Positions 8,832 to 42,667 of a DNA stretch of 64,000 nt are shown piece after piece; within the stretch, counting starts at the first letter, position 1, and each line of letters starts with the position of its first letter. This stretch comes from Thermoplasmata archaeon (GTDB lineage: Archaea > Thermoplasmatota > Thermoplasmata > Lutacidiplasmatales > UBA184). The position numbers were made by a program, and so were the translations under genes. The stretch lies in contig DASYYY010000021.1 of assembly GCA_035933635.1 (NCBI GenBank), positions 86,918 to 150,917 on the forward strand, read 5' to 3'. The notes under the pieces are model-generated. The model saw nothing but the letters and a program-made list of their open reading frames with translations, was not told the origin of the DNA and searched no databases.

Positions 8832-9749
8832 ATGGACCGAAACACCACCGAGCCACTCACCGCTACCCCGGAGAATTCGCCACGGTCCGACGAACCTCCT
8901 CGGCCCGTCGGGGACGGTCGGGCGAACGGTCGGGCCGAACCCCCTCCCTCCCCGCTCGAAGACAGCTTGCCGTTCCTGTTCTTCGGAGGAGTGTGCGTCG
9001 TCACGGCGATCTGGCTCTACCTCTCGAATCCGGTCCCCGGCAATCCGCTCCCGCTGTGGACCCTGCTCCTCGGCGTGGGAGTCATCGCGCTCGCCGGGGG
9101 GATCCTGGGCGCATTGATCGGCGTGCCGGGGCCCGCCCGCCCTGCACCGGTCCCCCGTCGCCGCCGGGTGGCCACGACGGCCCCTCGGCCCCCCGCTCCT
9201 CTGCCACCGCCCGTACGGGTGATCCCGCCCGTCGCCGTTCCCCGCACCGCACGGCCGACCCCTGCCCGTGAGATGGTGTCGATCGAAGCCGAGGCGTCGG
9301 ACTTCACAGGATTGGGGACAACGGCCACCCCTGCACCCTCGGCGGACCGGGGCCCGGAGTTGTACCGTCCGATCTTTGATTCGCCCCGAAACGAACCGCC
9401 GGCGGAGGATCGAAGCTCGGACGAGGTGCTTCGGAGCATCGAGGAACTCTCTGACATCATCCGGCGGGACCGACGCTCCTCCCCCTCAGAGGCATCGAGC
9501 TCGCTCGTCAGCTCCAACTGCGGGAGTTGCGGGTCGACGATCGTCCCCTCGGCGGCTCCGGTGCAGTGTCGCTCGTGCCGCGCCGCGCTGTGCAGCGCCT
9601 GCATCGAATTGGGGCAGCGGGATGGCCATCCGGGGGCGTGCCCGACCTGCGCGCTCCTCGAGGAAGTCGAGACCGCCGACCGCTCTCCCCGAGCTTGGCG
9701 CTCGGGACCCGGCGACGCCCCCGTCCCCGGCACGAGTTACGACGTTTGA
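8832..9749 (+). CDS. Membrane protein with two TM helices, Pro/Arg-rich linker and C-terminal 8-Cys double zinc ribbon
   Basis: TM segments LPFLFFGGVCVVTAIWLYL and LWTLLLGVGVIALAGGILGALIGV. C-terminus CGSCGS...CRSCRAALCSAC...CPTC. No recognisable family. Confidence 0.45.
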   Translation: MDRNTTEPLTATPENSPRSDEPPRPVGDGRANGRAEPPPSPLEDSLPFLFFGGVCVVTAIWLYLSNPVPGNPLPLWTLLLGVGVIALAGGILGALIGVPGPARPAPVPRRRRVATTAPRPPAPLPPPVRVIPPVAVPRTARPTPAREMVSIEAEASDFTGLGTTATPAPSADRGPELYRPIFDSPRNEPPAEDRSSDEVLRSIEELSDIIRRDRRSSPSEASSSLVSSNCGSCGSTIVPSAAPVQCRSCRAALCSACIELGQRDGHPGACPTCALLEEVETADRSPRAWRSGPGDAPVPGTSYDV

Positions 9750-9776
9750 AATAGGGGAGCCCGCGTCGGCCCGGCG

Positions 9777-10010
9777 ATGTCCGGCGCGATGAGCAAGAGT
9801 TCTGGCGGGGCCAAGACCGAGACCGACCGAGCGATCTCCGAGATCCTTCAGATGAACCCGCGCGGGGTCACCGTGACCCTCACGCTCCCTGTCGCCGACC
9901 GGCCCAGCCCAACGGTCACCCTCGAATGGAACCGCGAGGACACCACCATGCCGCTGAGCGAGTTGCTCAAGCGGATCGAGACCTACGTCCGCGAGTTCGG
10001 CAGCCGCTAG
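9777..10010 (+). CDS. Small hypothetical protein (77 aa)
   Basis: Intergenic ORF with non-repetitive composition (MSGAMSKSSGGAKTETDRAISEILQMNPRGVTVTLTLPV...). No family recognised. Confidence 0.3.
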   Translation: MSGAMSKSSGGAKTETDRAISEILQMNPRGVTVTLTLPVADRPSPTVTLEWNREDTTMPLSELLKRIETYVREFGSR

Positions 10011-11008: not shown

Positions 11009-11929
11009 TTAAATCTGCGCCCGCTCCGTCGGCGAACGGAGCCGCCGGGCCTCCGCGTCGAGGTACGGTTCGACCCGGGCGAGCGGCGGACCGTTCAGCG
11101 GCTGCGCCGGCAGCCCGAGCCGGTCGCTCATGAGCCACTCGACCTCGTACGGATACAGCAGCTTCGAACCGAACGTCGTCATCAGGCGGGCGAGCGCCAT
11201 CGCGCCCCCCCGCGACAGGCGGACGTAACGTGGCGGGCGCTGGAGCGCAGCGAACAGGCGATCGGTCAGGTCCCGGTAAACATAGCTCGACGGACCCCCC
11301 AGGTCCACGGTCCCGACCTCGCTCGACTCGGCGGCGGCACGCAGGTACCGGGCCAGGTCCTCGACGGCGAGTGGGCTGACATGGTAGGCCCCGTCTCCGA
11401 ACATCGGGAACCGATGGTACCGCTCCATCAAGCGGAGCATCACCCCCAGCAAGCGGTCGCCCGGACCGAACAACATCGTCGGGCGGAGGATCCGATAGGA
11501 CAGGCCGCTCTCCGACAGCGCCCGGTCGAATCGGCGCTTCAGATTCAGGTAGGGCAGATCGGTCTCGAGCCGGGCGGGTGCGGCGGGTACGCTCACGTGG
11601 AGAAATCTCGGCTGCGTCCCCGACCGGCACGCGTCGAGCAGACGTTCGAGTCCCGCCTCGAGCTCGCGGAAAACGCGTGGGCTCTCCCAGCGGTACCACG
11701 CGAGGTTGAGGACGCAGTCGACGTCGGCGACGAGCGGCGACCAGTCCTCCACCGCCGCCACGTCGGCCGGGATCCACTCGATCTCCGGGCCCCGCTCGGC
11801 GGCGACGGCGTGTCGATGGACCGAGCGGATCGCCCAGTCCGGTCGGAACGCGCTGAGGACGCTGCGCCCGACGAGCCCGCCCCCTCCGCCGACGAGGAGG
11901 AGCCGGCGGCCGGGGCAAGGGGTGCTCAT
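11009..11929 (-). CDS. NAD(P)-dependent epimerase/dehydratase (NmrA/SDR-like) family protein
   Basis: Start MSTPCPGRRLLLVGGGGGLVGRSVL (Rossmann Gly-rich loop). ATG at 11929 gives a 4-bp overlap with the lipB stop. Confidence 0.7.
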   Translation of the reverse strand: MSTPCPGRRLLLVGGGGGLVGRSVLSAFRPDWAIRSVHRHAVAAERGPEIEWIPADVAAVEDWSPLVADVDCVLNLAWYRWESPRVFRELEAGLERLLDACRSGTQPRFLHVSVPAAPARLETDLPYLNLKRRFDRALSESGLSYRILRPTMLFGPGDRLLGVMLRLMERYHRFPMFGDGAYHVSPLAVEDLARYLRAAAESSEVGTVDLGGPSSYVYRDLTDRLFAALQRPPRYVRLSRGGAMALARLMTTFGSKLLYPYEVEWLMSDRLGLPAQPLNGPPLARVEPYLDAEARRLRSPTERAQI

Positions 11930-12597
11930 CCGGCCGCGCCGGAGACCGGCATCGGTGGCGCGGCGATCGGTCCGATCGGCGGGGCCCCCGGGGCGAACAG
12001 CTCGCCGAACGCACGGACCAACGGTGGTTTGAGCGCCGCGACGGAAATCGGGCGGGCCAGTTCGCGCTCGACGGAGGTCATCACGCGTCCATCGAATCCG
12101 CAGGGGTGGAACGCGGCGAACGGCGCGAGGTCGTTGGTAACGTTGAGCGCGAGGCCATGGAAGGTGACCCACTCCTCGACGGCGATCCCGACCGAGGCGA
12201 TCTTGCGCTCGCCGTCGACCCAGACGCCCCGGCGGCCCGTGACCCGGCCGGCGGTCAGGCCCACCGTGGCCAGCGTGCGGACGACGAGCTCCTCGGTCTC
12301 GTGGACGAAGCGACGCACATCGCGTCCGCGCCGGTCGAGGTCCACGATCGGGTACGCGACGAGCTGGCCGGGGCCGTGGTAGGTGCTCTTGCCGCCCCGC
12401 TCGACCGAGACGACGGCGATGCCGGGAGGGAGCATCTCTCCGTCGCCGCCCTGAACTCCGACGGTGATCACCGGTGGATGCTCGACCAGGATGAGGGTAT
12501 CCGGGATCTCGCCGCGGCGCCGCTGCGCGCGCATTCGACGCATCTCGGCGAGCGCGTCGGTGTACTCCCGGAGGCCCCAGTCAACCGACGCGGGCAT
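11926..12597 (-). CDS. lipB: Lipoyl(octanoyl) transferase LipB
   Basis: RGGKSTYHGPGQLVAYPIVDL is the LipB signature. Lies immediately downstream of the 2-oxoacid dehydrogenase genes. Confidence 0.85.
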   Translation of the reverse strand: MPASVDWGLREYTDALAEMRRMRAQRRRGEIPDTLILVEHPPVITVGVQGGDGEMLPPGIAVVSVERGGKSTYHGPGQLVAYPIVDLDRRGRDVRRFVHETEELVVRTLATVGLTAGRVTGRRGVWVDGERKIASVGIAVEEWVTFHGLALNVTNDLAPFAAFHPCGFDGRVMTSVERELARPISVAALKPPLVRAFGELFAPGAPPIGPIAAPPMPVSGAAG

Positions 12598-14023
12598 GCT
12601 CCCGTCGCATGGAAACGTGCATCGGCTCGTTGAGCCACAGCAGGGCGGCCTCCTGGACCATCTCGGAGAAGGTCGGGTGCGGGTGGATCGTCAGCGCCAC
12701 GTCCCGTACCATCGCGCCCAGTTCGATGGCGAGCGCCGCCTCAGCGGCGAACTCCCCACAGCTCTCCCCGGCGGCGTGGACCCCGAGCAGCAGGCCGGTG
12801 GCGTCGTCCCCGACCACCTTGAGCCAGCCGCCCGTGGCGTGGTAGGCGTGGGCCCGACCCAGCGCCGCGTACGGAAAGCGGACCTCCCGGGCGTTGTGGC
12901 CCTGGGCCTTGGCCTCCGCCAAAGTGAGCCCCGTGCTGGCGAGCTCCGGGCTGGTGAACACGACCGATGGGACGACCTGGAACTGGTAGCGGGTCGGACG
13001 CCCCGCGATCACCTCGGCGGCGACGATCCCCTCCCGGTAGGCCTTGTGCGCGAGCATCGGGGGTCGGCCGACGTCGCCGACGGCGTAGATGTGGGGCACA
13101 TTCGTCTGCTGCCGGTCGTTGACGGTGATGGCGCCGGTCCTCGGGTCGACGGTCACGCCCGCCTCTTCGAGACCCAGTTCTGCGGTGGCGGGCCTCTTTC
13201 CGACCGTCAGGAAGAGCTTCTCGGCGGTGAACCACTCGGTGCCGTTGGCCCCGTTCGCCGTCAGCTGGACGCCTTTGGCCGAGCGCTCGAGCTTAGTGGC
13301 CTTCGTCCCGGTGCGTACCGTCACGCCCAGTTTCTCGAGAGCGCCCGTGAGCTCGCGCGAGAGGTCCGGGTCGAGTCCGGGGAGCAACTGCGGAAGGAGC
13401 TCGAGGATGGTGACCTTCACCCCGAGATGGGCCAGGAACTCGCCGAGCTCGCATCCGCTGACGCCCCCGCCCAGTACTAGGAGCGATTCCGGCGGCGTCT
13501 CGAGGTCCAGGATCTGCCAGGCGGTCAGGACGCGCTCGCCGTCCGGCTCGAACCCGGGGATGACCGACGGGACCGACCCGGTCGCGATGATGGCGTTCTG
13601 GAAATCGATCCGCTCCCGGCCGCCGTCGTGCGCGGCGAGCTCGACCGACTTCGGACCGGTGAAGCGCGCCTCCCCAAAGAGCACCTGCGTTCCGGCCGCC
13701 TTGACCAGGGTCTGGACGCCCTGGCGCTCCTTCTCGACCACGGCCCGCTTGGCCGCCTGCGCCTTCGCGAGATCGAACTGCACGCCGCCGGTGACCAGGC
13801 CCAGCTCGCTCCCTTGCGTCAGTACCTGGTGGTACAGCGCACCGGAGTGGATGAGCGCCTTCGAGGGGATACAGCCGCGGTTGAGACATTCCCCGCCGAG
13901 GTCCTTGCGCTCGAGCACGACCGCCTTTCGGCCAAGCTGGCCCAGCCGGATCCCCGCGATGTACCCGCCGGGGCCTCCGCCGAGGATGACGGTCTCGGTC
14001 TGCCGCGCGTAGGTGCCGGCCAC
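12581..14023 (-). CDS. lpdA: Dihydrolipoamide dehydrogenase (E3)
   Basis: GGGPGGYIAGIRLGQLG (FAD binding), redox-active disulfide GGECLNRGCIPSK, and a C-terminal dimerisation HPTFSE motif. Confidence 0.9.
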   Translation of the reverse strand: MAGTYARQTETVILGGGPGGYIAGIRLGQLGRKAVVLERKDLGGECLNRGCIPSKALIHSGALYHQVLTQGSELGLVTGGVQFDLAKAQAAKRAVVEKERQGVQTLVKAAGTQVLFGEARFTGPKSVELAAHDGGRERIDFQNAIIATGSVPSVIPGFEPDGERVLTAWQILDLETPPESLLVLGGGVSGCELGEFLAHLGVKVTILELLPQLLPGLDPDLSRELTGALEKLGVTVRTGTKATKLERSAKGVQLTANGANGTEWFTAEKLFLTVGKRPATAELGLEEAGVTVDPRTGAITVNDRQQTNVPHIYAVGDVGRPPMLAHKAYREGIVAAEVIAGRPTRYQFQVVPSVVFTSPELASTGLTLAEAKAQGHNAREVRFPYAALGRAHAYHATGGWLKVVGDDATGLLLGVHAAGESCGEFAAEAALAIELGAMVRDVALTIHPHPTFSEMVQEAALLWLNEPMHVSMRREHARVG

Positions 14024-14025
14024 GG

Positions 14026-15099
14026 TCAGGCCACCTCGGGAGCGTGGGCCGTAGCGGCTCGGGCCGGTGCCCAGACATCGCTGGTCAGGGTCTCGGGCCG
14101 CGGCGCCGGGACCGATTCGGCGGCGGCGACCGCACGCTTGACCTCTGCCTCGGCGTCGTCGAGCATCGCCTTGCGGTCCGGCTCGGCCAGGAGTCCGAGC
14201 TCATCGACGAGTCGCTCCAGACGCCGGTAGGGGTCGTGGGCGAGGGCGCGGGCCATCCAGTCCGCCGACTGGTAACGCGTCGGGTCGTCGGAGCTCGAGT
14301 GGGGCGTCATCCGGAAGAGCACGAATTCCAGCATCGACGGTCCGCCCCCCCGACGGGCGTGGTCGATCGCGGCGCCCAGGTCGTGCATCACCGCGACGAC
14401 ATCCGTGCCGTCGACGGTCCGGCCGGGTATCCCGTACGCCTCGGCCTTGACGGAGAGATGTTCGACGTGGGTCTGCTGGGAGACGGGCACGGAGATCGCC
14501 CACTGATTGTTCGTGCAGCAGAAGACCACCGGCAGGCCGTACACTCCCGCGAAATTCAACCCCGCGTGGAAATCGTTCGCGGAGGTCGCCCCGTCCCCGA
14601 AGAACGTCAGCGCCACGGCCGCTTCCCGACGCCGTCGCAGCGCGTACCCGATCCCGACCCCGTGGGTCACCTGGGTGCCGATCACGCTCGACATCGACAC
14701 ATAATGGACCTCTCGGGCGGTCGGATGGCAGGGCATCTGTCGCCCCCGCGCCGGGTCGCGATCGTTGGCGAACAGGTGGTCGACGTAGCGCTCGAGGGAG
14801 TGGCCACGCACCAGCGCGACCAGCTGCTCGCGTAGTCCCGGGATGATCCAGTCCTCGGGACGGCTGACGAGCCCCGCGCCCACGCTGACCGCCTCCTGGC
14901 CCGTCGCCGGGCCGTAGAACCCGATACGCCCCTGACGCTGGAGACCCAGCATTCGCGCGTCGAGGGTGCGCGCCAACGTCATCCAGCGGTAGGCGCGGAC
15001 GAGGTAGTCGCGCCAATACGGCCCCAGATTGCGTTCGAGATCCGCCGCCCCGTAGGGCAGGGGGACCACTTCCGGCGGGGCCGGCGCCTCCGGGCTCAT
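14026..15099 (-). CDS. 2-oxoacid dehydrogenase E1 component alpha subunit, second paralog
   Basis: TPP motif FFGDGATSANDFHAGLNFAGVYGLPVVFCCTNNQWAIS. ATGA overlap with the E2 stop. Second E1alpha copy in the operon. Confidence 0.85.
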   Translation of the reverse strand: MSPEAPAPPEVVPLPYGAADLERNLGPYWRDYLVRAYRWMTLARTLDARMLGLQRQGRIGFYGPATGQEAVSVGAGLVSRPEDWIIPGLREQLVALVRGHSLERYVDHLFANDRDPARGRQMPCHPTAREVHYVSMSSVIGTQVTHGVGIGYALRRRREAAVALTFFGDGATSANDFHAGLNFAGVYGLPVVFCCTNNQWAISVPVSQQTHVEHLSVKAEAYGIPGRTVDGTDVVAVMHDLGAAIDHARRGGGPSMLEFVLFRMTPHSSSDDPTRYQSADWMARALAHDPYRRLERLVDELGLLAEPDRKAMLDDAEAEVKRAVAAAESVPAPRPETLTSDVWAPARAATAHAPEVA

Positions 15100-16460
15100 G
15101 CGAGCTCGGAGAACATCAGGTGGGGATCTTCGAGGTTGGCCTTCACCACGGCGAGGAACTGGGCCCCGGTGATCCCGTCCAGCACGCGGTGGTCGAGGGA
15201 AACCGACAGGTTCATCAGATCCGCTGGGCGCAGCGTTCCGTCGGGCGCGTAGACCGGCCGTTTGACGATCCGGTGGACGCCGAGTATCGCAACCTCCGGG
15301 TAGTTCAGGATGGGCGTGGCGAGCACGCCCCCGAGCGCCCCGAGGCTGGTGATCGTGAACGTGCTCCCCGAGAGCTCCCCGCGCGTCAGCTTGCCCGACC
15401 GCCCGCGCTCGCTCAGGTCGTAGAGTTCCCGAGCGAGTTGCCCGACGCTCTTGGTGTTCGCGTCGCGGATCACCGGAACGATCAGACCGTCCGGGGTCGC
15501 CGTGGCGATCCCGAGATGGTAGCGGTGGTGAACGACGAGTTCCTGCTTGTCGTCGTCCATCGTAGCGTTCATCATCGGATACTGTCGCAAGCCGGCGACG
15601 ACACCCTTGATGACGAACGGGAGGTAGGTCAGCCGCGTCCCCTGCTTCTCCAGGTGCTTGGCCATCCGGTCGCGCGTCCGGACCAGCTCGGTCGCGTCGA
15701 CCTCCTCAACATAGGTGAAGTGGGCGGCGCGTCGCATCGCCTCGGCCATGTGCTCGGCGATCACGCGCCGCAGACCACGGATCGGCACCCGCTCGATCTC
15801 GGCGCCCGCCGGGACGGGGGCGGAAGCGGAGGCGGGAGCCGGTGCCGTTGGTGGGGAGGGTGCCGGAGCCTCGGGGGGCGGGACGGCCGGGCTCGCCGCC
15901 GGCACGGTCGCGGGGGCTGGCGGGGGGGCCGCACCGCCCGCGGCGGCGGCCAGTACGTCGGCCTCGGTGATCCGCCCGTTCGGGCCGGTTCCGCGAACGG
16001 CTCCGAGGTCGACGCCCTTCTCGGCTGCCAAGCGACGGAGGTAGGGAGCCGCCAAGACGCGACCGGCCGGAGCGGACGAGGGGGGCGCCGGTTCGGTCGG
16101 TGTGGGGGCGGAAGCCGGTGGCGGACTCGGCTCCCCTGGGCTGGGAGCCTGGCCCACCGAGACGGTGGATTCCGCGGGCGGCTCCGAAGGCGGCGGAGCG
16201 CCGGACTTCCCCCCGCTGTCCCCGGCCGTTTCGATCGTGACGAGAAGTCCCCCGACCTTGACCTTCTGGCCCTCCTGCGCGTGGATCTTCGAGATGCGAC
16301 CGGCACGCGGCGAGGGGATCTCGACGTTGGCCTTGTCGGTCAGGACCGAGACGAGCGGCGCGTCCTCGGCGATCGCGTCGCCCTCCTTGACGTACCACTT
16401 GACGACCTCGCCCTCGGCGACGCCCTCGCCGATGTCCGGCAGCTTGAACTCGAACGCCAT
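15096..16460 (-). CDS. Dihydrolipoamide acyltransferase (E2)
   Basis: Lipoyl domain (MAFEFKLPDIGEGVAEGEVVKW...LTDKANVEI), Ala/Pro-rich linkers, peripheral subunit-binding domain (AAPYLRRLAAEKGVDLGAVRGTGPNGRI) and a catalytic domain containing DHRVLDG. Confidence 0.9.
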   Translation of the reverse strand: MAFEFKLPDIGEGVAEGEVVKWYVKEGDAIAEDAPLVSVLTDKANVEIPSPRAGRISKIHAQEGQKVKVGGLLVTIETAGDSGGKSGAPPPSEPPAESTVSVGQAPSPGEPSPPPASAPTPTEPAPPSSAPAGRVLAAPYLRRLAAEKGVDLGAVRGTGPNGRITEADVLAAAAGGAAPPPAPATVPAASPAVPPPEAPAPSPPTAPAPASASAPVPAGAEIERVPIRGLRRVIAEHMAEAMRRAAHFTYVEEVDATELVRTRDRMAKHLEKQGTRLTYLPFVIKGVVAGLRQYPMMNATMDDDKQELVVHHRYHLGIATATPDGLIVPVIRDANTKSVGQLARELYDLSERGRSGKLTRGELSGSTFTITSLGALGGVLATPILNYPEVAILGVHRIVKRPVYAPDGTLRPADLMNLSVSLDHRVLDGITGAQFLAVVKANLEDPHLMFSELA

Positions 16461-16472
16461 GGTGGCCCACCC

Positions 16473-17450
16473 CTAGCCGGCCCTCGCCGCGGTCTTGATC
16501 GCATGCGCGATCCGCTCGGGCCCGGGCAGGTAGACGTTCTCGAGGGCGTAGGGGAACGGAGTGTCCCAGCCGGTGACCCGAAGGACGGGCGCCTTGAGCG
16601 AGTAGAGGCACTTCTCGGCGAGGATGGCCGCCAGCTCCGCACCGTAGCCGCAGAACCTCGGGGCTTCGTGGACGATGACCGCGCGACCGGTCTTCTCGAC
16701 CGACGCCACGACCGCCGCCTCATCGAGCGGTACCAGCGTGCGGAGGTCGACGACCTCGGCGTCGATCCCCTCCGCCGCGAGCGACTCCGCCGCCTGCATC
16801 GACGGTGGGATCATCGCTCCGTAGGCGAAGACCGAGACGGTCGAGCCCGGTCGGACGACCTGCGCGGATCCGATCGGGACGCGGTGGTCCCCTTCGGGAA
16901 CCTCCCCGGTGACCGCCCGGTAGATCCGCTTGGGCTCGAAGAACAGCACCGGGTCCTCGTCGTGGATGGCACTGAGCAACAGTCCCTTGGCATCGGCGGG
17001 GTTGCTCGGGATGACCACCTTCAGTCCGGCGGTGTGCGCGAAGTAGGCCTCGGCGCTCTGAGAGTGGTAGAGCCCGCCCTTGATGCCACCTCCGTACGGC
17101 GTCCGGATCACGACGTGGCAGGGGTACTGTCCGCCCGAACGGTAGCGGAACTTGGCGAGCTCGCTGACGATCTGGTCGAAGGCGGGATAGATGAAGTCCT
17201 GGAACTGGATCTCGGGAACCGGTTTGAGCCCGTAGAGCGCCATCCCGATCGCGGTGCCGATGATACCGGTCTCCGACAGCGGTGTGTCGATGACCCGGTC
17301 GGCCCCGAACTCCTTCTGGAGCCCCTCGGTCGCACGGAACACACCTCCGTTGACCCCGATGTCCTCGCCCAGCAGCAGGACATCGTCGTCGGTGCGGAGC
17401 GCGTGCTGCAATCCCCGATTGACCGCTTGGACGAGCGTGAGTTCCGTCAT
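16473..17450 (-). CDS. 2-oxoacid dehydrogenase E1 component beta subunit
   Basis: Start MTELTLVQAVN (ATG at 17450, ATGA overlap with the E1alpha stop). Transketolase-like pyrimidine and C-terminal domains. ORF-track entry 16473..17618 trimmed. Confidence 0.9.
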   Translation of the reverse strand: MTELTLVQAVNRGLQHALRTDDDVLLLGEDIGVNGGVFRATEGLQKEFGADRVIDTPLSETGIIGTAIGMALYGLKPVPEIQFQDFIYPAFDQIVSELAKFRYRSGGQYPCHVVIRTPYGGGIKGGLYHSQSAEAYFAHTAGLKVVIPSNPADAKGLLLSAIHDEDPVLFFEPKRIYRAVTGEVPEGDHRVPIGSAQVVRPGSTVSVFAYGAMIPPSMQAAESLAAEGIDAEVVDLRTLVPLDEAAVVASVEKTGRAVIVHEAPRFCGYGAELAAILAEKCLYSLKAPVLRVTGWDTPFPYALENVYLPGPERIAHAIKTAARAG

Positions 17451-18526
17451 GGCCGTACGACTCCCTGATTGAACAACTGCTCGAGCTCGCGCCGTTCCTC
17501 CTGGAGCAGCGGCGGCTGCGAGCCGAAGACGTCGTCGAAGATCGACATCGGTGGGACCGGCCCGACCGACTCGGACTTCTGGACCGCCTTGGACAGGAGC
17601 TCCTTGGCCGATTCCCACAGCGCCGTGTCGGCCGCCTCGGTCAGCGTCCCGGCATCGAGCAGCTCCCGCTTCAGCCGGGCGATGGGGTCCTTGGCCTTCC
17701 AGTCGGCCAGCTCGGCGTCGGTACGGTAGCGTTTGGGATCGTCGGAGGTGGAGTGCGGGCCCAGACGGTAGACCTGCGCCTCGATCAGCGTCGGCCCTCC
17801 GCCGGACAGCGCACGGTTGCGGGCCTCAGTGACGGCGCGGTAGACCGCCCGCACGTCCATCCCGTCGACCACGACGCCCGCAATGCCGTAGGCGATCGCC
17901 TTCTCGGCGAGCGTCTTGCTGTGGGTCTGCTTCTCGCGTGGGAGCGAGATCGCCCACTGGTTGTTCTGGCAGAAGAAGATCGTCGGGGTTTGGAAGACCC
18001 CGGCGAAGTTCAATCCCGCGTGGAAGTCGTTCGAGCTGGTCGTTCCATCGCCGAAGAAGGTGATCGTGATGTGCGAGGCCCCCTTGCGCTGCGCGGCCAT
18101 CGCCGCCCCGACCGCGTGGGAGATCTGCGTCCCGACCGGACTCGAGGCCGTGACGAAATTGAACCGTCGGTACCCGTAGTGGTTGGGCATCTGCCGGCCC
18201 TTGAGCTCATCGCCGCTGTTGCCGAACAGCTGGTCGAGCACGAGCTGGAGCGGGATCCCACGGACGAGGGCGACGCCGAGCTCCCGGTAGGCCGGGAAGA
18301 TCCAGTCCTCGGGTTTGAGCGCCCAGGCGCAGCCGACCTGGGCGGCCTCCTGGCCCTGCAACGGGACGTAGAAGCCGATACGGCCCTGACGCTGGAGGGT
18401 CAGGCACCGCTCGTCCGTGACGCGGACGACGACCATCGCCTGGTACGCCTTGAGCAACTGTTCCGAGGGAAACTCGGGGTCCTGGGGGGTAGCCACCGAG
18501 CTCGGAACGACCGAAGCCTCACCCAC
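17447..18526 (-). CDS. 2-oxoacid dehydrogenase E1 component alpha subunit
   Basis: FFGDGTTSSNDFHAGLNFAGVFQTPTIFFCQNNQWAIS TPP motif. GTG start at 18526. First gene of the operon. Confidence 0.85.
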   Translation of the reverse strand: MGEASVVPSSVATPQDPEFPSEQLLKAYQAMVVVRVTDERCLTLQRQGRIGFYVPLQGQEAAQVGCAWALKPEDWIFPAYRELGVALVRGIPLQLVLDQLFGNSGDELKGRQMPNHYGYRRFNFVTASSPVGTQISHAVGAAMAAQRKGASHITITFFGDGTTSSNDFHAGLNFAGVFQTPTIFFCQNNQWAISLPREKQTHSKTLAEKAIAYGIAGVVVDGMDVRAVYRAVTEARNRALSGGGPTLIEAQVYRLGPHSTSDDPKRYRTDAELADWKAKDPIARLKRELLDAGTLTEAADTALWESAKELLSKAVQKSESVGPVPPMSIFDDVFGSQPPLLQEERRELEQLFNQGVVRP

Positions 18527-18549: not shown

Positions 18550-18700
18550 CGGGGTGCCGATATAACGCTACGGCCGAGGAGGCGACGCTCGAGCACCCCG
18601 ACGTCGTTGGCTGCGGTTCGCCGGTCTCTCCCCGAGCGAAACCGTCGTCGACAGTGGCGTTTCGTACGGGTACCGCAAAGGGTGATTATCCCCCGACCAC
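18550..18700. promoter_or_regulatory. Divergent promoter region with TATA-like elements (cgTTATATCgg for E1alpha, gTGATTATCc for ABC ATPase)
   Basis: In this ~68 % GC DNA, AT-rich hexamers lie about 25–40 nt upstream of both divergently oriented start codons. This is consistent with archaeal TATA boxes and short-leader or leaderless mRNAs. Confidence 0.3.
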
Positions 18701-25942: not shown

Positions 25943-26168
25943 CGGTCAGCTCGCGCAACAGTCCCCCCTTGTACCGAGACGCTGCCCGAACTGCGACCCG
26001 AGGGTCGAAATCGATCTGGGCCGTAGACGGATGTTGGGTCCGTGCACGTTCCACCGTAGCATGTTGGGAGCCCGCGAGAGAACGTTCGGGGGGCGCGTCG
26101 GCCAAGCCGTGGGGTCCGTTTGGGGCCGGAAATGCATCGCGCGAACCCACGGCTTCTTTCGCAGTCAA

Positions 26169-26188
26169 TGGGCCCAGTCGGATTTGAA
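26169..26188. repeat. attL-like direct repeat TGGGCCCAGTCGGATTTGAA, identical to the 3' end of tRNA-Ile at 42668..42687
   Basis: 20/20 nt identity with tRNA nt 56–75 (T-loop 3' half plus acceptor 3' strand). Flanking sequence diverges on both sides. The interval between the repeats has lower GC and carries mobile-element genes. Confidence 0.6.
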
Positions 26189-26343
26189 TACGAATGGGTT
26201 CGGGCCCGTCCAATTCGCCTCACAAGCGCCCCAAGTCCGGCCGCGAGCCTTGCCGAGGGGGTGGGTTCAACACTGCCCGTGGTCGCACTGTTTCTTGGGC
26301 CAATCCCCAGATTCGATTCGCACGTTCGTAGTCGCCTCCTGAA

Positions 26344-26835
26344 TCATCGGTCGCCACGGCCTATGACGTCTTCGAGGGGTTTCCACAATGACCAGTACTT
26401 CTCCGGGAGCCACAGGCTGCCAGTGCTGTCATCTTCACCGTAGTAGCGACTCACGCTCCGGGTAGCACCCTTCGGGGTGGCGGCGTGGGATATTGGGGGC
26501 GATCCGCCATTTCGACCGCCGAGGGGTCTGAGGTCAAAGATTACAACGTAGTCGCTCAGGCGCAGGGATGCTGCCTTTCCCAGAGGCACGACTGAGTTCC
26601 GAGTCCCTTTCACCTGTAGCGTCCGCGGTCTCGATCCGCTTTTCGAGACGAGCAGCAGGTCCGGCCCCGCGGAGTTCTTCGCAGTCGGGATGGCGTGCCA
26701 ACCAAGTTTCGAAGCTACGACCATCGACCAGCCGAGCGCCTCTAGGCTGGTGCTGACGTTCCTCCACTGATCCCGCCCCATCGGGCTACCCCCTCGGAGG
26801 AGCGTTAAGGCCTGTTCGTAGCCAGCCCCGAGCAA
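26344..26835 (-). CDS. Hjc-like (archaeal Holliday-junction-resolvase-fold, PD-(D/E)xK) nuclease-like protein
   Basis: N-terminus GAGYEQALTLL and core SAGPDLLLVSKSGSRPRTLQVKGT parallel the Hjc motifs (GxxxERxLxxxL and SAGSxxxDLVA...IEVKxT). Here Q replaces E in the (E/Q)VK motif, as in Mrr. Confidence 0.4.
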   Translation of the reverse strand: MLGAGYEQALTLLRGGSPMGRDQWRNVSTSLEALGWSMVVASKLGWHAIPTAKNSAGPDLLLVSKSGSRPRTLQVKGTRNSVVPLGKAASLRLSDYVVIFDLRPLGGRNGGSPPISHAATPKGATRSVSRYYGEDDSTGSLWLPEKYWSLWKPLEDVIGRGDR

Positions 26836-27060
26836 GTATGCATGACGTTGCCGCGCGAGTGTGGCACCCTACTGAGTTGATTTGGCCCGGAAGGGTTGAG
26901 GCGTCGACTTCACCCGGGGATACACGACCGGCCGTTACCTAGAGGGGTCTGAGTCTGCCAGTATAGAATCAGAGCTCTGGACCGGTCGGCGCGTAGTTGA
27001 GAGCCCTTGCACTACCTCTCGGCCGGCGGAGACCTAGATGCTGCCGCGCTCGCCCAGGAA

Positions 27061-29437
<2,377 letters not shown>

Positions 29438-29639
29438 CTATAAGCTTCCCAGTTTCCACAAGATTGAACGGTGGAGGGTGCCACCCCCATTGGCTTCCCA
29501 GAGAGTGTAGGGCCTAGCCGCGCCATATCGGGCCCGCGCCCCATTCCGGGGAGCAGCGCCTGTCGGCTCGGACTCGGGCCAATGCTGGCCGCACCTCCTT
29601 ATCAGGTAGGTCGAATTCGAGACCCCGGGGAGTGTCCGG

Positions 29640-31019
29640 ATGGCACCAAAGAGGAAGAGGCTCTCATCGACTCACTTTTCAAGCATCCTTCTGCGCAACT
29701 TCCGCTGTTACAAGGATTCTGGCCCGATTCCATTCAAACCTCTAACCATAATCTTGGGGCCGAACAACGTCGGGAAGTCAACCATCCTAAACTCCATCCT
29801 CCTGATGAAGCAAAGTCTGGCAGTCGATACTCCTCGAGAGGCGATCATTACTTCCGGACCCCTGGTCGATCTCGGTGGGTTCTCGGACGTTCTCCACAGA
29901 GGTGCATCCAAAGGCGATCGGTCGTTCACGGTGGAGCTCCAGGCGACTTACTCAGGTCAGAACTCGCCTTTTGGAGGTTTTCGTGATGACCTGAAGTCAC
30001 CGTCGAAGGATCGTGGGATCATCGGTCTCAGTCTAACATTCGGGTATAGCTCAGCGGCAAATCAGATCCTCGTTCGTGAGGTAGAATTCCGACGCGATGG
30101 CGTGACTGAACTGAAATTCAAGGGTCACGGCTCCCGAATCTTCCTGCTCAATCCAGACGGCTCAGAGCGTTCAGATTTGGAGGTCCACCTCCTGAATTCT
30201 CTACCCCTTATTCACGGCAAGGTTGGGCGGAAGGGGAAACCAAATGAAGACCAAGTCCGCGATCTCTCGCGCCTAGGAAATCTCTGCATCTCTCATGCAT
30301 GGGGTTGGACGGACTTTCACCGCAGTGTGGGTTATGTCGCCCCACTCCGCGGCCCGACCCCGCGATACGCGACTTCGGGTTCCACGTCTCCGGGTGGGCC
30401 CCTCGCTACACCCGCTGGACTTCTGCAGGAGCTGAAGAGCCGTCGAAGGCTCAGACCTACCGGGAAGCAATTGATCAAACTCGTTGAGGACTGGGCCAAG
30501 AATCAGCTTGGCGTCCTCAGGGGCCTGGACCTCCGGTCCATCGACAAGGCTGGAACCGTATTCGCGCTCTTCGTCGATGAAAGGTCTGGGTTCCGGGGAA
30601 TCAATATCGCGAGCATGGGAGAAGGCGTCTCGCAGCTGATTCCAATCTTGAGCGCAGTACTAGGGAGCAGGGACGGCTCCTGCGTCCTGGTCGAACAACC
30701 CGAACTCCACCTCCACCCGGATCTTCAAGCCCGCATTGCGGACCTGTTCGTGGATCAGGTCGTGAACAATCGCAAGCAGATCATCTTGGAGACCCATAGC
30801 GAGCACCTGCTCCTGAGAGTCCGCCGCCGGGTTGCGGAGGGAACACTCGACCCCTCCCAGGTCGCGATTCTGTACGTCGACCGACCGGGTCGCGAGTCGC
30901 GTGTACGGAGCTTGCCCATCGATTCGGACGGCCACATCGGTCAATGGCCTGAGGGTTTTTTCGAAGAGGGGATTGAGGAAGCGTACCGAATCGCATCCGC
31001 GCGATCTGGCGGGGCTTAG
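29640..31019 (+). CDS. AAA_21/AAA_15-type (ABC-like, OLD/Septu/PARIS-family) ATPase
   Basis: LRNFRCYKD...IILGPNNVGKSTILNSI (Walker A after an NFR motif), a long insert, then VLVEQPELHLHPDLQ (Walker B/D-loop) and ILETHSEHLL (H-loop). C-terminal ...GQWPEGFFEE tail. Divergent from the MTase-Mrr gene. Confidence 0.8.
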   Translation: MAPKRKRLSSTHFSSILLRNFRCYKDSGPIPFKPLTIILGPNNVGKSTILNSILLMKQSLAVDTPREAIITSGPLVDLGGFSDVLHRGASKGDRSFTVELQATYSGQNSPFGGFRDDLKSPSKDRGIIGLSLTFGYSSAANQILVREVEFRRDGVTELKFKGHGSRIFLLNPDGSERSDLEVHLLNSLPLIHGKVGRKGKPNEDQVRDLSRLGNLCISHAWGWTDFHRSVGYVAPLRGPTPRYATSGSTSPGGPLATPAGLLQELKSRRRLRPTGKQLIKLVEDWAKNQLGVLRGLDLRSIDKAGTVFALFVDERSGFRGINIASMGEGVSQLIPILSAVLGSRDGSCVLVEQPELHLHPDLQARIADLFVDQVVNNRKQIILETHSEHLLLRVRRRVAEGTLDPSQVAILYVDRPGRESRVRSLPIDSDGHIGQWPEGFFEEGIEEAYRIASARSGGA

Positions 31020-31023
31020 GTCC

Positions 31024-31521
31024 GTGGAGGTCACGGTCGACACGAACGTATTGGTTAGAAGTGGAGTAAAGAGCGATCCAGCCCGCCCGGCATGTTTCGT
31101 GTTCCTCCATGAGTTCAAGGCGCGCGAAGATCTCGTCCTGGCGCTAGACGATGAAGAGCTCGTCGAGAGAGAGTACCGGGCTCACCTCAACCCGATGACA
31201 TACGGTCACCACTGGCTTCGGACCATTCTTCTTATGAAGGCCCGGACGAAACTCCTCAAGCGAGCAGAGTTGCCGCCGGCTGTCCGAGCCGAGCTCTTGG
31301 ACGAGTGCCACCTGGACCCACCTGATCTCAATCTCTTCGTGCGCGTGGCCCTTGCGTCGAAAGAGAAACTCATCGTAACCCACGATGGCGACTATTGGCG
31401 GAGCTCTAGGCGATGCCTAAAGAGACGGCTCAAGATCGAGGTCGAATCTGCGAAGTCGGTCCATCCCAAGCTTTGCGGGGGCCAGTGGGAAGACTGCCGC
31501 CGGCGAGTTATGGGGGGGTAG
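31024..31521 (+). CDS. PIN-domain nuclease-like protein, translationally coupled to the ATPase
   Basis: GTG start 4 nt after the ATPase stop. VEVTVDTNVLV (first PIN acidic residue), acidic ALDDEELVERE, LDPPDLNLFVRVALA (third Asp) and LIVTHDGDYW (fourth Asp) give the PIN four-acidic-residue topology. The only ATG in frame would truncate the DTNVL motif. Confidence 0.55.
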   Translation: MEVTVDTNVLVRSGVKSDPARPACFVFLHEFKAREDLVLALDDEELVEREYRAHLNPMTYGHHWLRTILLMKARTKLLKRAELPPAVRAELLDECHLDPPDLNLFVRVALASKEKLIVTHDGDYWRSSRRCLKRRLKIEVESAKSVHPKLCGGQWEDCRRRVMGG

Positions 31522-32021
31522 GAAGTTACCCGTGCGCATCTGGTTCCAGCCCTCTCAATTCGGGGAAACTTAAAGACGCCACGGACCTTTACCCTAGCTG
31601 AACATGGATCTCGCTTCGACCCCGAATTCTGAAGTGCGGAGTGAACAAGCATTGATTCGTCAGGTCTCGCGGTCGAGGTTACCAAACGACCGCGAACGGC
31701 GCGAGCACCGTCACGGGACCGGCAACTCAATCAAGGCATTCTTCGCCTGCCCCGGGTGTGGACTCCCTATTCCCTTTGGCGGCGCACCCTGACCAGACTC
31801 CGACTCCCTGTTCTTCTGCGAATCGCTCGCTGGAATCGCCAAGATTCAGTCGGATACCTGGAAGACGTAAGGGTCTCAGCGGCCCCTGATTAAATCGGGT
31901 GCCTTGCCGGAGCCCCCCTCCCCTCGGGCTTCTCCGGACCCTTTCGGGACGGCGGGGTTACGTGAAGACCCCCGGTGAGGCGGGAGGATCGGACCCTGTC
32001 CGCTGAATAGGACAGAGATAC

Positions 32022-32639
32022 TTGCGGCCGAAGGAATCGGTCGCCCACATCATGACGGCGGAACTGCCCCCTCCGGACCGACGGATTATCGCGGAGTTCT
32101 CGACCGACGCCGCCGGCCGCACCCGCGGTCGCCTGATCGTGAACCTGGCCGGTCTGGCAGTTCTAACCGTCATCCTACTTTCAGTGTTTGGATGGGCGGT
32201 TGTGCGCGAGCCGGAGGCATCACTGCGCGCACTGGCAGCCGCCTCCATCGCCGGACCGTTCGTTTTCGGCGCTCTCGCGGTTCTCTTTGCTCGTCGCGCT
32301 TCCGCCCGCCGTCCACCGAACCTCGTCCGACTTTCCGACTGGGGTGTGGAGTTCGATGCCCCTCCGACAACGCCTGGTCTCGCCCCCGAGGAGAGCGGCG
32401 GCGCTATTGCGTGGCCGCACGTCGGGAGGGTCGAGATACAAGAAGCGGCCCGGGCGAGGAGACGAGCTGGGTTGTCTCAGGTTACCTTCTATTCACGCGA
32501 GTTCCACAGGCGGCCAATAGCGTTCACGGTCCCTCGCTTCTGGCCATGGGGTATCCGCATCCCATATCTTCGACGGGAGGACGCCGAGAAGATCATCGAA
32601 CTCGCCGAGGGATGGATCGCTTCCTCGACCACGGACTGA
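32022..32639 (+). CDS. Hypothetical membrane protein (2 TM)
   Basis: TM helices LAGLAVLTVILLSVFGWAVV and AAASIAGPFVFGALAVLFA. An alternative start is at 32052 (MTAEL). Confidence 0.35.
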   Translation: MRPKESVAHIMTAELPPPDRRIIAEFSTDAAGRTRGRLIVNLAGLAVLTVILLSVFGWAVVREPEASLRALAAASIAGPFVFGALAVLFARRASARRPPNLVRLSDWGVEFDAPPTTPGLAPEESGGAIAWPHVGRVEIQEAARARRRAGLSQVTFYSREFHRRPIAFTVPRFWPWGIRIPYLRREDAEKIIELAEGWIASSTTD

Positions 32640-32654
32640 GGTTAACGGACCAGC

Positions 32655-33263
32655 CTAGCTCCACTCGTTCCGTCGACCGAGTCCCTTGGGCCGCTTCGCG
32701 AGGAGTTCCCTAATCGCCCGGTCGGCCATGTTCAGTTCTCTGGGGATCTTGACCCAAGTTACGGACGATAGCCCGGCCAAGTCCGCACGGATCCCGTCCC
32801 GGATTCGCGCGGCGATGTCAACATCCCCCAGCTGAATACTCACTTGGCTATCCTCCCCGTTCATGTAACGAATGACCTGGTCGCCATCCCCGAGGAATCT
32901 CGCTCGCCTCGTGCAGCCGTTCGTCTTGAGGTGGAGCGCCGCGCCACGGGCGGCGATGAGGTCATACAGTTGGGTGCCGCGTGCCCACGCGCTCTGGACA
33001 ATCAAGTCCCAGTTGTCCTGCCATATGCGCGCCAGGGGCGGGTCCCAGGATGCAATCGCGGCGCCGATGGGGGAAGATAGGCAAGACTGACCGCCCGAAG
33101 CCTTGTCTGGATTGGGCTGGCCGTTGAACGACACGAAGCCCAAGTCAACGCGGTTCGGGTAGCCTTCCTTGCTCCAACGAACGCCTGAATCGAAGTAGAC
33201 CCAGACCTCATCCCAACCGCTGATTGCTCCTGATCTTTGCCGCCGCACGATCCAGTAACCCAA
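32655..33263 (-). CDS. Hypothetical protein (202 aa)
   Basis: Non-repetitive ORF in the island. No family recognised. Confidence 0.35.
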   Translation of the reverse strand: MGYWIVRRQRSGAISGWDEVWVYFDSGVRWSKEGYPNRVDLGFVSFNGQPNPDKASGGQSCLSSPIGAAIASWDPPLARIWQDNWDLIVQSAWARGTQLYDLIAARGAALHLKTNGCTRRARFLGDGDQVIRYMNGEDSQVSIQLGDVDIAARIRDGIRADLAGLSSVTWVKIPRELNMADRAIRELLAKRPKGLGRRNEWS

Positions 33264-33371
33264 CTCAGTGGGACACCACCAAGCATGTCATTTGTTCGGG
33301 GGTCCTGACGGGGCGAAAGGGACAGGTATAGCGCCGATTCCTCGCCGAAGAACCGGAGGGGAGACTTCGGG

Positions 33372-33935
33372 GTGGCCGCTACATACAACCGCGGCGTAGC
33401 CGGCTCGGAGATGGATTCGCGGAATACTGTTGCGAAACGCGTAGCCCATGAGTCCGGACCAGAAGGGTCACCGCGCGATCAGCGGCTCGTGCGGATCGGC
33501 CTGCTCGTGTTCTCCGCTGGCTTCCTGAGCTCAATCACCGGCATCCAGGTCCTCCCTCCCGGCTACTTCCCGCCCTGGCAGACCTCCGCCCCCCTCGTTT
33601 GGGTCGCTTGGGGTTGGTTGACCGTAGGGGCTTTGGCAGCTGGAGCGACACTTGCCCTCGCAGCAGCCGCGCATTCCCACCGGTCGTGGCCGTTCGCGGA
33701 GTTCCGAGTCGCTCCTGACCCGAAGGATATGGACCCGCGGCTGTGGTGGTCACTCGTCGGATCATTCTCGGCCCTCGTCGGGGTCGTGTTCGTCTGGACG
33801 TACGTGCTAGGCAACCCGTACTTGGACGGGCACTCCATCGTTCATTGGGGAGCTTTGGCCTTTCTAGTCTTGGGGGTAAGTTGGATGGTAGGGCAAGCCG
33901 TGGTGTCCCGAAGAAAGAAGACCGCGTACCTGTAG
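33372..33935 (+). CDS. Hypothetical membrane protein (4 TM)
   Basis: Four hydrophobic segments (LVRIGLLVFSAGFL..., LVWVAWGWLTVGALAAGATLALAAAA, WWSLVGSFSALVGVVFVW, GALAFLVLGVSWMVG). Confidence 0.35.
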   Translation: MAATYNRGVAGSEMDSRNTVAKRVAHESGPEGSPRDQRLVRIGLLVFSAGFLSSITGIQVLPPGYFPPWQTSAPLVWVAWGWLTVGALAAGATLALAAAAHSHRSWPFAEFRVAPDPKDMDPRLWWSLVGSFSALVGVVFVWTYVLGNPYLDGHSIVHWGALAFLVLGVSWMVGQAVVSRRKKTAYL

Positions 33936-34119
33936 ACGATGCCCGCCGCGCGCGGGGGTTCTCCAGGGCTCGAATTGGGCCGGCGCCCAATTGCGCGTGT
34001 GTGGGGGTGGGTGCGGAGTGGGAATGTTGGAGAAAAGCACGCATTGCGGATCAGTGGGTGGCGTGGAGGGCCACCCTCGGCGCTCTAAATCCGCTCGGAC
34101 CCTTTTCCACGCGAGGGGT

Positions 34120-34668
34120 TTAGGACGAAGGGGCAGGCCGCGCGTTCGGATCGGGGTGGCCAATCCACTCCCACGATTCTGGAGGGAACAGGTTCCTGGG
34201 AGCGTTCGGGTGCCCAAGAATAGCCGCAGCCTGTTCTCGGCTGACGGGAAAGTCACGAACGGGAGGCGCCCTGCCGCCGGGCCCCCCGAACCGTCTTGCC
34301 GATAGCCACCCCCATCTTTGGACAGGCGGCCTCTGACTCGGACGCAAGTCGGCCCAGAAGACAATCCGCTCTCGTAGCCGGCTGTGCACGTGGACCCCGG
34401 TCGGACCAATCCCAATCCGATTCGGAACTTGAGAGAGGGCGACCACCACGAAAGCTAACGGGGTGGCAATCTCCGTGCCCACAAGCGCCGCCGCGAGTCC
34501 GGGATTCGCCGTTGAGAACAAGACGCGGATCAGATACGGCGCGCCGCCAATGATGATGAACGCGACGGGCAGAAACGCCGCATACATCACGCCGAGTCCG
34601 ACGAGCGTCCAGAACAACGGTGGGCGCCCGGCAGTGGGGAGCCAAACGGGGCTCTCTTGAGAACCCAT
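34120..34668 (-). CDS. Hypothetical membrane protein
   Basis: Start taken at MGSQESPVWL (34668) so that it does not overlap the recombinase. TM segments LFWTLVGLGVMYAAFLPVAFIIIGG and LAAALVGTEIATPLAFVVVAL. Confidence 0.3.
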   Translation of the reverse strand: MGSQESPVWLPTAGRPPLFWTLVGLGVMYAAFLPVAFIIIGGAPYLIRVLFSTANPGLAAALVGTEIATPLAFVVVALSQVPNRIGIGPTGVHVHSRLRERIVFWADLRPSQRPPVQRWGWLSARRFGGPGGRAPPVRDFPVSREQAAAILGHPNAPRNLFPPESWEWIGHPDPNARPAPSS

Positions 34669-34688
34669 TTTCGGCCGAGGCTGGAACC

Positions 34689-35330
34689 CTATTTTGGTCC
34701 GGTGACCGAGAGCCGACCTGCTGGATCGGGTCCAATCTTTCGGCACGTTCCCGCCGGGAGGCCCACGTGCTGTGCCACCTCCTTCCAAGGAAGACCTCGC
34801 GACCGGAGCTCACGGACTCGAGCCGCCAGCTCGGGGGTCACACGGCGGGGTCGCCCCGGAGGTCGCCCGCTCCGGGTGAGCCGCCGTCCCTCCCGGAGTT
34901 CCCTCATCGCGACCCGGACTCGCTCGGAGCGCCGCTTGGACTCGAACGCCGAGATGACCGGGAGCAGCGCCAGGAGCACGTCCCGCCCCAAGTTCGGTCG
35001 GCCGTCCTCTGGCGTATCGAGCGTGGACTCCTTCAGCGAGTGGAACCGGACCCCGGCCGCCTCGAGGTCGAGGATCGTCTGGGTCGCTCGGGTGAAGGTG
35101 GCCTCCCGGCTGAAGCGGTCGAGGGACCACACGAGGAGGTGGGTCCAGATCCGGTCGGGTTTCCGGGCATCGGAGAGCAGCCGTTCGTACTCTACCCGCT
35201 CGACCTTCCCGGTCCCGGAAACCTTCTCGGCGTAGACCGCTGTAACCGACCAACCGCGACGGTCCGCTTCCGACCGTAAGTCGCGTTCCTGACCCGCCAA
35301 GTCCTGGTCTTCGGTCGAAACTCGGAGGTA
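34689..35330 (-). CDS. Serine recombinase (resolvase/invertase family), start codon unresolved
   Basis: VALYLRVSTEDQDLAGQERDL (catalytic Ser motif), VWSLDRFSR and a C-terminal HTH (GLPWKEVAQHVGLPAGTCRKI). No ATG/GTG/TTG lies within about 50 codons upstream of the catalytic motif in frame. The ORF-track N-terminal 130 aa (Arg/Pro-rich) are unlikely to be real. Confidence 0.65.
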   Translation of the reverse strand, partial: YLRVSTEDQDLAGQERDLRSEADRRGWSVTAVYAEKVSGTGKVERVEYERLLSDARKPDRIWTHLLVWSLDRFSREATFTRATQTILDLEAAGVRFHSLKESTLDTPEDGRPNLGRDVLLALLPVISAFESKRRSERVRVAMRELREGRRLTRSGRPPGRPRRVTPELAARVRELRSRGLPWKEVAQHVGLPAGTCRKIGPDPAGRLSVTGPK

Positions 35331-35497
35331 AAGTGCGACCGAACAGTTGGCCGCCCCCGGAACGACCTCCTCCGGCGGGGGAGGGGACCGAGGCCGGGCC
35401 TCGTGGGGGGTAACCGTTAGTTCGTCCGTTTGAGTCGGCGTACTAAACTCGCAGTTCGACTCTAGCGCCGCCCCAGAGGGGGCCAATTGGCTCCCGG

Positions 35498-35743
35498 TCA
35501 AACGTCCCCTCTCCGCCTCGCCCGCAGCCGTCGCCGCCTGAGCGCGTCGGTATCCCGTCGGTAGTCCGGGTAGCAGACCGGGCAGATCCAAGACCGCGAA
35601 CGGTTCGGCAAGGTCTTGCCGCACCCCTGGCAATGCTTGCGATCGTACGGTTGGGCGGTGCGACCGTGCTCGCGGTCCGAGTACCGAAGCTCCCTCCCCC
35701 GGATCCAGAGGTGGTCGTAGAACTTCCCCGGCCGTTCGACCAT
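35498..35743 (-). CDS. Small zinc-ribbon protein (81 aa)
   Basis: CQGCGKTLPNRSRSWICPVCY (CxxC...CxxC). Located upstream of the recombinase. Confidence 0.3.
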   Translation of the reverse strand: MVERPGKFYDHLWIRGRELRYSDREHGRTAQPYDRKHCQGCGKTLPNRSRSWICPVCYPDYRRDTDALRRRRLRARRRGDV

Positions 35744-42622: not shown

Positions 42623-42667
42623 GGCCTCGATAGGCCCAGCGCGTGTGGGTTAAAATGGGTTCCTACT

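Follow-up and report, generated by a model that had tools for sequence, protein, structure and literature searches.

A second E1 alpha gene without a beta of its own in a 2-oxoacid dehydrogenase gene cluster of a Thermoplasmata archaeon and its counterparts in bacteria

The standard picture of the heterotetrameric E1 component of 2-oxoacid dehydrogenase (OADH) complexes is an invariable α2β2 pair whose genes are neighbours and in which the beta subunit supplies the pyrimidine-binding half of each thiamine pyrophosphate (TPP) site. A precedent for two E1α proteins on one E1β and one E2/E3 core exists in mammals, where PDHA1 and PDHA2 share PDHB; we know of no prokaryotic example of alphas exchanged on a common β. 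The gene cluster described here, from a Thermoplasmata archaeon of the Lutacidiplasmatales, holds two E1α genes, called α and α′, and a single E1β. It lies within a stretch of 64,000 nucleotides (contig DASYYY010000021.1 of assembly GCA_035933635.1, positions 86,918 to 150,917; about 70% G+C) that was analysed as a whole and is referred to as the window. PDHA1 and PDHA2 are tissue-specific eukaryotic isoforms that resemble each other closely, act on the same substrate and have their genes on separate chromosomes, whereas the two alphas of the window are 48% identical over 317 amino acids and stand in one operon.

The nearest solved relative of α, α′ and β is the branched-chain E1 of Thermus thermophilus HB8 (α2β2; 1UM9/1UMB), which has the same TPP motif and catalytic histidine and differs in having one alpha per beta; at the places of LRE and SSVIGT in α′ its alpha reads YYRD and ASPIAS, and α′ lacks the segment that the T. 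thermophilus alpha has after its 'DVF' motif. Operons of the Thermoplasma acidophilum type (E1α-E1β-E2-E3) belong to the same phylum and share the four core components with the window, but they have no α′, and those seen in this work begin with LipA. A further match in gene order is bacterial: the LipA-α-β-E2-α′-E3-LipB operons of Planctomycetota (for example locus L033) are identical to the window from α to LipB and their downstream alpha also has LRE and SSVIGT, although LipA is included, the epimerase-like gene that follows LipB in the window is lacking, both alphas end in ...G.G.FPL, unlike those of the window, and sequence phylogeny does not clearly unite their α′ with the archaeal one.

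On the minus strand of the window the genes run E1α-E1β-E2-E1α′-E3-LipB, the order that a sequence-only reading of this DNA had given and that was obtained again from Pfam and NCBIfam profile matches, from which all gene identities were taken. With E1α, E1β, E2 and E3 all present, the cluster is predicted from its gene content to encode one heterotetrameric-E1 (αβ) complex. The canonical α (17447..18526; 359 amino acids, GTG start) directly precedes β (16473..17450; 325 amino acids, ATG start at 17450; Transket_pyr PF02779 and Transketolase_C PF02780), and α′ (14026..15099; 357 amino acids) follows E2; the two alphas match PF00676 (E1_dh) at 7.7e-95 and 3.6e-80, respectively. We consider the chances about even that α′ is an active alternative alpha which uses the single β of the operon and the same E2/E3 core.

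The lack of a separate beta for α′, already remarked in the sequence-only reading, extends far beyond this genome. In the window, tblastn detected no E1β-like sequence besides 16473-17450, and no extra β was found within about 8-10 kb of α′ in more than 60 related loci, except for an unrelated, distant α-β pair in a myxococcotal locus (L048). Thus the two alphas are not each accompanied by their own β, and no locus examined has a β directly after α′ as it does after a canonical alpha.

Both alphas keep the GDG...NN motif of TPP binding and the HS.SDDP motif of the catalytic histidine when aligned to 1UM9 and 1W85, which agrees with the earlier description of two copies that retain the TPP motif yet are clearly divergent. 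The canonical α carries YRE, and its C-terminal helix and tail are conserved; with 411.4 bits it just passes the cut-off of the equivalog TIGR03181 (PDH_E1_alph_x; 411.35), under which α′ stays with 345.5 bits. For both, the nearest solved structure is the branched-chain 2-oxoacid dehydrogenase (BCKDH) E1α of T. thermophilus (8e-87 for α, 2e-64 for α′), and for β it is 1UM9_B (5.6e-116), with the PLSE glutamate and the HSQS histidine visible in the alignment. Human BCKDH and Geobacillus pyruvate dehydrogenase (PDH) come next, in an order that differs between α and α′, and mitochondrial-type PDH is much more distant from all three proteins than these structures.

The coding sequence of α′ is intact. 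It keeps 86-92% of 66 near-invariant E1α positions, each at least 90% conserved in canonical alphas, compared with 91-98% in the upstream α of the lineage (97% in that of the window) and only 41-80% in decayed alphas of Polyangia; the positions that align with Geobacillus D180 and I206 are also retained. Pairwise ratios of nonsynonymous to synonymous substitution (dN/dS) within the lineage, where synonymous sites are near saturation, were 0.20-0.43 for α′ and 0.15-0.34 for α, and α′ is therefore under purifying selection, like α. An AlphaFold2 model of α′ (mean predicted local distance difference test, pLDDT, 87.7; predicted template-modelling score, pTM, 0.87) superposes on the T. thermophilus BCKDH E1α (1UMB) with a template-modelling (TM) score of 0.84, so that the protein is predicted to have the E1α fold and looks functional.

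What sets α′ apart is a short signature that it shares with other downstream alphas. The motif [GA]LRE occurs in 20/20 downstream alphas from Thermoplasmata, Planctomycetota and Myxococcota, whereas all intact upstream alphas examined except that of L059 (HR) have YR[EDQN], as do both structural references, and no alpha placed before a β has Leu at this Tyr position. Downstream copies also read SS[VC]IGT in place of SSPIGT elsewhere. The Leu is present in 120/120 close homologues of α′. Of the 150 best-matching representatives from a 50%-identity clustering of 1.84 billion proteins, 27 have it, and these are concentrated at the top of the list. In our alignment to the human BCKDH sequence, with the numbering assumed here, the sites of the Tyr-to-Leu and Pro-to-Val/Cys changes are Tyr113α and Pro163α, both presumably in loops that hold TPP, and we take the replaced Tyr to contact the TPP diphosphate; the two signature changes of α′ would therefore fall in TPP-binding loops. 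By the Leu signature and by gene position, both of which it has, α′ appears to belong to a conserved and recognisable alpha subfamily (LRE-type) that usually stands beside E2 and/or E3 without a β. This subfamily is apparently undescribed so far: no description of it or of a two-alpha/one-beta operon was found in the open-access full-text literature.

The distribution of the arrangement was followed in species-representative genomes with E1β as query (80 loci) and in metagenomes with α′ as query (50 further loci). The closest homologues of α′ (63-76% identity) all come from metagenome-assembled genomes named 'Thermoplasmata archaeon' or from soil and peat metagenome contigs, the best genome match being L001 (AcS5-116). 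The genome scan yielded six close Thermoplasmata loci, and the five that are long enough all show α-β-E2-α′-E3-LipB. Over the 48 informative loci of the lineage, the E2 stop lies at most 60 nt from the α′ start in 38 and a spacer of 164-1181 nt separates them in five, so that the layout is kept in 43; the check proposed earlier, for the duplicated arrangement in other genomes of the lineage, thus gave a clear positive. In the other five, from three populations, α′-E3-LipB-epimerase stands alone behind unrelated, oppositely oriented genes. E3 follows α′ directly on the 3' side in every related locus that reaches that far.

Two relatives carry unrelated open reading frames (ORFs) exactly at the E2/α′ junction, a 253-amino-acid ORF at 11487-12248 in L001 and a 208-amino-acid ORF on the opposite strand at 12470-13096 in L006, which suggests that this junction is a variable, recombination-prone seam. 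Because both standalone modules and spacers are seen, the operon may be regarded as two modules, α-β-E2 and α′-E3-LipB-epimerase, joined at that seam. The epimerase-like gene follows LipB in L001-L004 and L006 and in 25 loci from metagenomes, whereas the bacterial loci lack it; the gene is atypical for the NAD(P)-binding epimerase/dehydratase family, and its conservation in the cluster is confined to the archaeal lineage. LipA was not found in the window or in the loci of its lineage. Lutacidiplasmatales genomes have about 69% G+C and point to aerobic, organoheterotrophic organisms (Sheridan et al., PMC9287336), and the paper describing them makes no mention of 2-oxoacid dehydrogenases. LipB is the rarest among archaeal lipoylation systems (Borziak et al., PMC3904984), in keeping with the remark in the sequence-only reading that OADH complexes are sporadic in archaea: OADH operons, and LipB especially, are uncommon there.

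The arrangement is peculiar neither to the genome of the window nor to archaea. Among the 80 genome loci, α-β-E2-α′-E3-LipB was present in 10 from Planctomycetota (one of them, L033, in the complete Engelhardtia mirabilis Pla133 genome) and in one unclassified bacterium, with LipA preceding most of these 11 operons. In Myxococcota (L043, L045, L048) the order is LipA-β-E2-α′; lipoyl synthase and not an alpha lies upstream of β, the α′-type protein is the sole alpha of the operon, and an α′-type protein can thus be the only alpha beside a β-E2 pair. A further locus, L023, shows LipA-β-E2 and ends soon after E2. The betas of these myxococcotal loci are 63-65% identical to that of the window, which shares 62-68% identity with the bacterial betas of these operons in general and 56-62% with the betas of plain α-β-E2-E3 operons from other Thermoplasmatota; β, E2, E3 and LipB of the window are slightly closer to the bacterial versions than to those of the Thermoplasmatales-type loci L051, L061 and L071. 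Seven further Leu-type representatives were looked up, six of them with usable context: the orders read were E2-α′-E3 (L131), α′-E3 alone (L132, L134, L135), α′ alone (L136), LipA-α-β-E2-α′-E3 (L137) and E2-α′ alone (L138, from an organism of 32% G+C). From the archaeal lineage and the Planctomycetota-type operons to Myxococcota and to L131, L132, L134, L135, L137 and L138, the place of α′ is after E2 and/or before E3.

Some bacterial loci have features of their own. In L043 (13290-15599) and L048 (13332-14594), the gene after α′ encodes a protein bearing a ClpX-type zinc finger; the L043 protein also matches AAA-type ATPases weakly, and the LipB of that locus carries a fused NUDIX domain. In eight loci of Polyangia (L019, L021, L028, L038, L046, L049, L052, L053) the alpha that precedes an intact E1β-E2 pair is degenerate, with neither the YR motif nor the catalytic HS.SDDP segment left; it lies at about 8950-10000 in the full-length loci and elsewhere in the short loci L021 and L046, and no other alpha was found within 10 kb in these loci.

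Whether the archaeal and bacterial α′ descend from one duplication was approached in several ways. In a neighbour-joining (NJ) tree of 86 sequences the deep nodes were unresolved; with 208 sequences all downstream copies fell in a clade of 40, of which 39 are Leu-type, with a bootstrap of 55-66%, the grouping of α′ as sister to α within the lineage received 19%, and the upstream α of the window grouped with the alphas of L051, L061 and L071 (40%). Maximum-likelihood (ML) quartet mapping with a BLOSUM62-derived rate matrix was split at about 45:43:11 overall, and quartets made of the four Thermoplasmata and Planctomycetota copies preferred grouping by lineage, (T_dn,T_up|P_dn,P_up), in 17/20, for which reason a common origin of archaeal and bacterial α′ is not proven. 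Rare derived states point towards monophyly of the Leu-type group, five being exclusive to the two downstream groups against two exclusive to the two Thermoplasmata copies; the two Planctomycetota copies have seven in common, of which four lie in the C-terminal tail. Reciprocal scoring of the two copies with hidden Markov models against the Planctomycetota copies gave a consistent but small orthology signal of about 10-40 bits that was not relied on, as generic profiles dominate the scores. A single origin of α′, followed by some concerted evolution or by co-evolution of paralogues serving the same partners, is fairly probable from these comparisons, about two-thirds in our judgement; independent alpha duplications with convergent Tyr-to-Leu changes may be the alternative. 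Under one origin or several, the layout recurs.

Features confined to the α′ of the archaeal lineage are found at both ends of the protein. An N-terminal motif, (V)P-L.Y..E.....LGP.W, is conserved there, absent from all other groups and modelled at a pLDDT of about 98. At the other end, the tail after 'DVW' is non-conserved and disordered, and takes the place of the 'PW.L.EQ' helix and conserved C-terminal end of the other groups; a Phe and a Trp that are otherwise conserved are also replaced, as described below. Since other Leu-type alphas keep these residues, the altered C-terminal region is a peculiarity of the lineage and not of the subfamily. More widely (L007-L060), the ends of E1α proteins are conserved by lineage, as ...FPL in both Planctomycetota copies, Bdellovibrionota and Melainabacteria, as ...G-H in Sorangium and some Thermoplasmatota, and as ...[RK]P in the upstream alpha of the window lineage, with nothing conserved in its α′; such lineage-wise conservation suggests a docking role for the C-terminal end.

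An alpha alone would be without the pyrimidine-binding half of the TPP site, for which reason α′ needs a β. That of the operon is the most economical partner because it is the only beta in view, because an ATGA overlap couples the translation of α′ to that of E2, and because the Myxococcota α′ occurs with only that β. The product would be a complex of the branched-chain or Gram-positive-PDH type for which the operon supplies a lipoylation enzyme and two exchangeable E1 alphas, each of which would pair with the single β to give α2β2 and α′2β2. In the Geobacillus structure of E1 with the peripheral-subunit-binding domain of E2 (1W85), two betas reportedly form the docking site for that domain; since the docking surface for E2 is supplied by β, both tetramers could bind the same E2/E3 core. 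Duplication of the alpha only would then suffice for a second substrate preference or kinetic form. Physical pairing of α′ with the operon β, and a specificity different from that of α, are what we infer from the sequences.

Several observations weigh against this sharing of one β. As α′-E3 or E2-α′ modules stand alone, α′ can be encoded far from any β; in three populations of the archaeal lineage (L102/L103, L106/L107, L119) α′-E3-LipB-epimerase is apart from α-β-E2. A mirror-tree comparison of 20 operons speaks neither for nor against the pairing, as r for the positive control α-β (0.49) was no higher than for non-interacting pairs. In the lineage α′ the Phe of 'LF.DVY' has become Thr, a conserved Trp has become Ala and the C-terminal helix is lost; the substitutions F364C, Y368C and Y393N in this region of human BCKDH are reported to block tetramer assembly. 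There the 'LF.DVY' region lies against the C-terminal domain of the other β (PMC6140420). With the Phe, the Trp and the C-terminal helix of this β-contact region lost, the assembly mode of α′ may differ.

These points feed two competing explanations, each of which seems improbable to us and neither more so than the other. In the first, α′ pairs with a β encoded elsewhere and forms a separate E1, with or without use of the E2/E3 of this operon. It draws on the modules that stand alone, α′-E3(-LipB-epimerase) in the three archaeal populations and in L132, L134 and L135 and E2-α′ in L138, and on the E2/α′ junction as a variable seam with unrelated ORFs in L001 and L006; but a dedicated β would be expected beside α′, as in almost every other E1 gene pair, none was found within 8-10 kb in the more than 60 loci, and in Myxococcota the operon's β is the only neighbouring partner. 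In the second, α′ either joins α in a mixed αα′β2 tetramer or is a modulatory subunit that vies with α for β, tuning activity with no specificity of its own. Co-encoding and translational coupling of α and α′ in one operon would suit this explanation, as would the altered C-terminal region and the new, confidently modelled N-terminal motif of the lineage α′; so would the derived states shared by the Planctomycetota paralogues, C-terminal tail included, and the frequent grouping of paralogues of one lineage in ML quartets, as expected of paralogues that co-evolve with a shared partner. Against it stand the catalytic residues, all of which are kept in α′, and the myxococcotal operons, where an α′-type protein is the sole alpha and so can evidently work without a canonical α.

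Less probable still is that α′ is merely a redundant copy, or that it has lost catalysis and serves in structure or regulation. The Tyr-to-Leu change removes the presumed TPP-diphosphate contact, the TIGR03181 score of α′ (345.5 bits) is below the cut-off (411.35) and truly degenerate alphas do exist beside β-E2 in Polyangia, yet the other TPP and catalytic motifs are intact, 86-92% of the near-invariant positions are kept, dN/dS is well below 1 and the protein is conserved in 120/120 close homologues and across phyla. Decay to a pseudogene, named with the sequence-only reading as the finding that would overturn it, is ruled out for α′ by motifs, conservation, dN/dS and the structure model, and by motifs, conservation and purifying selection neither alpha copy is a pseudogene.

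The remainder of the cluster is as follows, all on the minus strand. E2 (15096..16460; 454 amino acids; PF00364 Biotin_lipoyl, PF02817 E3_binding and PF00198 2-oxoacid_dh) has a single lipoyl domain, a peripheral-subunit-binding domain and a catalytic core. E3, a dihydrolipoyl dehydrogenase (12581..14023; 480 amino acids, GTG start), scores 488.9 bits against TIGR01350 (cut-off 408.8). LipB, an octanoyl/lipoyl transferase (11926..12597; 223 amino acids; PF21948), scores 162 bits against TIGR00214 (cut-off 83.55) and falls outside the span 12581-18526 that had been quoted for the operon with LipB in it. The NAD(P)-binding epimerase/dehydratase-family gene (11009..11929; 306 amino acids; PF01370 and PF13460) is the seventh of the cluster. 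Of the ATGA overlaps earlier ascribed to all consecutive genes from E1α to LipB, those at E1α/E1β and E2/α′ were found, together with one at LipB/epimerase; the other three of the five junctions consist of a 12-nt gap (E1β/E2), a 2-nt gap (α′/E3) and a 17-nt overlap (E3/LipB). A TATA-like box, TTATAT (18560..18565, minus strand), read from the sequence about 35-40 nt upstream of the GTG start of E1α in a 159-nt divergent intergenic region, is a possible operon promoter, and no comparable AT-rich promoter-like box was found upstream of α′; the seven genes are probably co-transcribed.

The neighbours of the cluster (an ABC-2 exporter, a glycoside hydrolase and a DUF1684 protein) gave no hint of the substrate. 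Elsewhere in the window, 26000-36000 has a low G+C content (0.58-0.63 against about 0.70) and resembles a mobile defence island. Its minus strand encodes a DNA methylase with a fused Mrr-type restriction-endonuclease domain (27623-29401) and a serine recombinase (34689-35891), and its plus strand an AAA_15/AAA_21/DUF3696 ATPase (29640-31019). The window also has a tRNA-Ile gene, at 42667-42743.

A wider proposal is plausible but clearly less probable than the sharing of one β in this operon: the LRE-type α′ proteins may form a widespread, undescribed class of beta-sharing 'specificity subunits', in which an alpha swap or an asymmetric αα′β2 assembly would let one E2/E3 core handle two classes of 2-oxoacid, the module having passed between bacteria and soil archaea along with E3 and the lipoylation genes. 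If α′ does share the β of its operon, an alpha paralogue without its own β would be a simple genetic route to a wider substrate range or to regulation in aerobic soil archaea, Planctomycetota and Myxococcota. Because both genes are labelled 'pyruvate dehydrogenase E1 alpha', a second activity may go unnoticed in metabolic reconstructions of these uncultured soil archaea.

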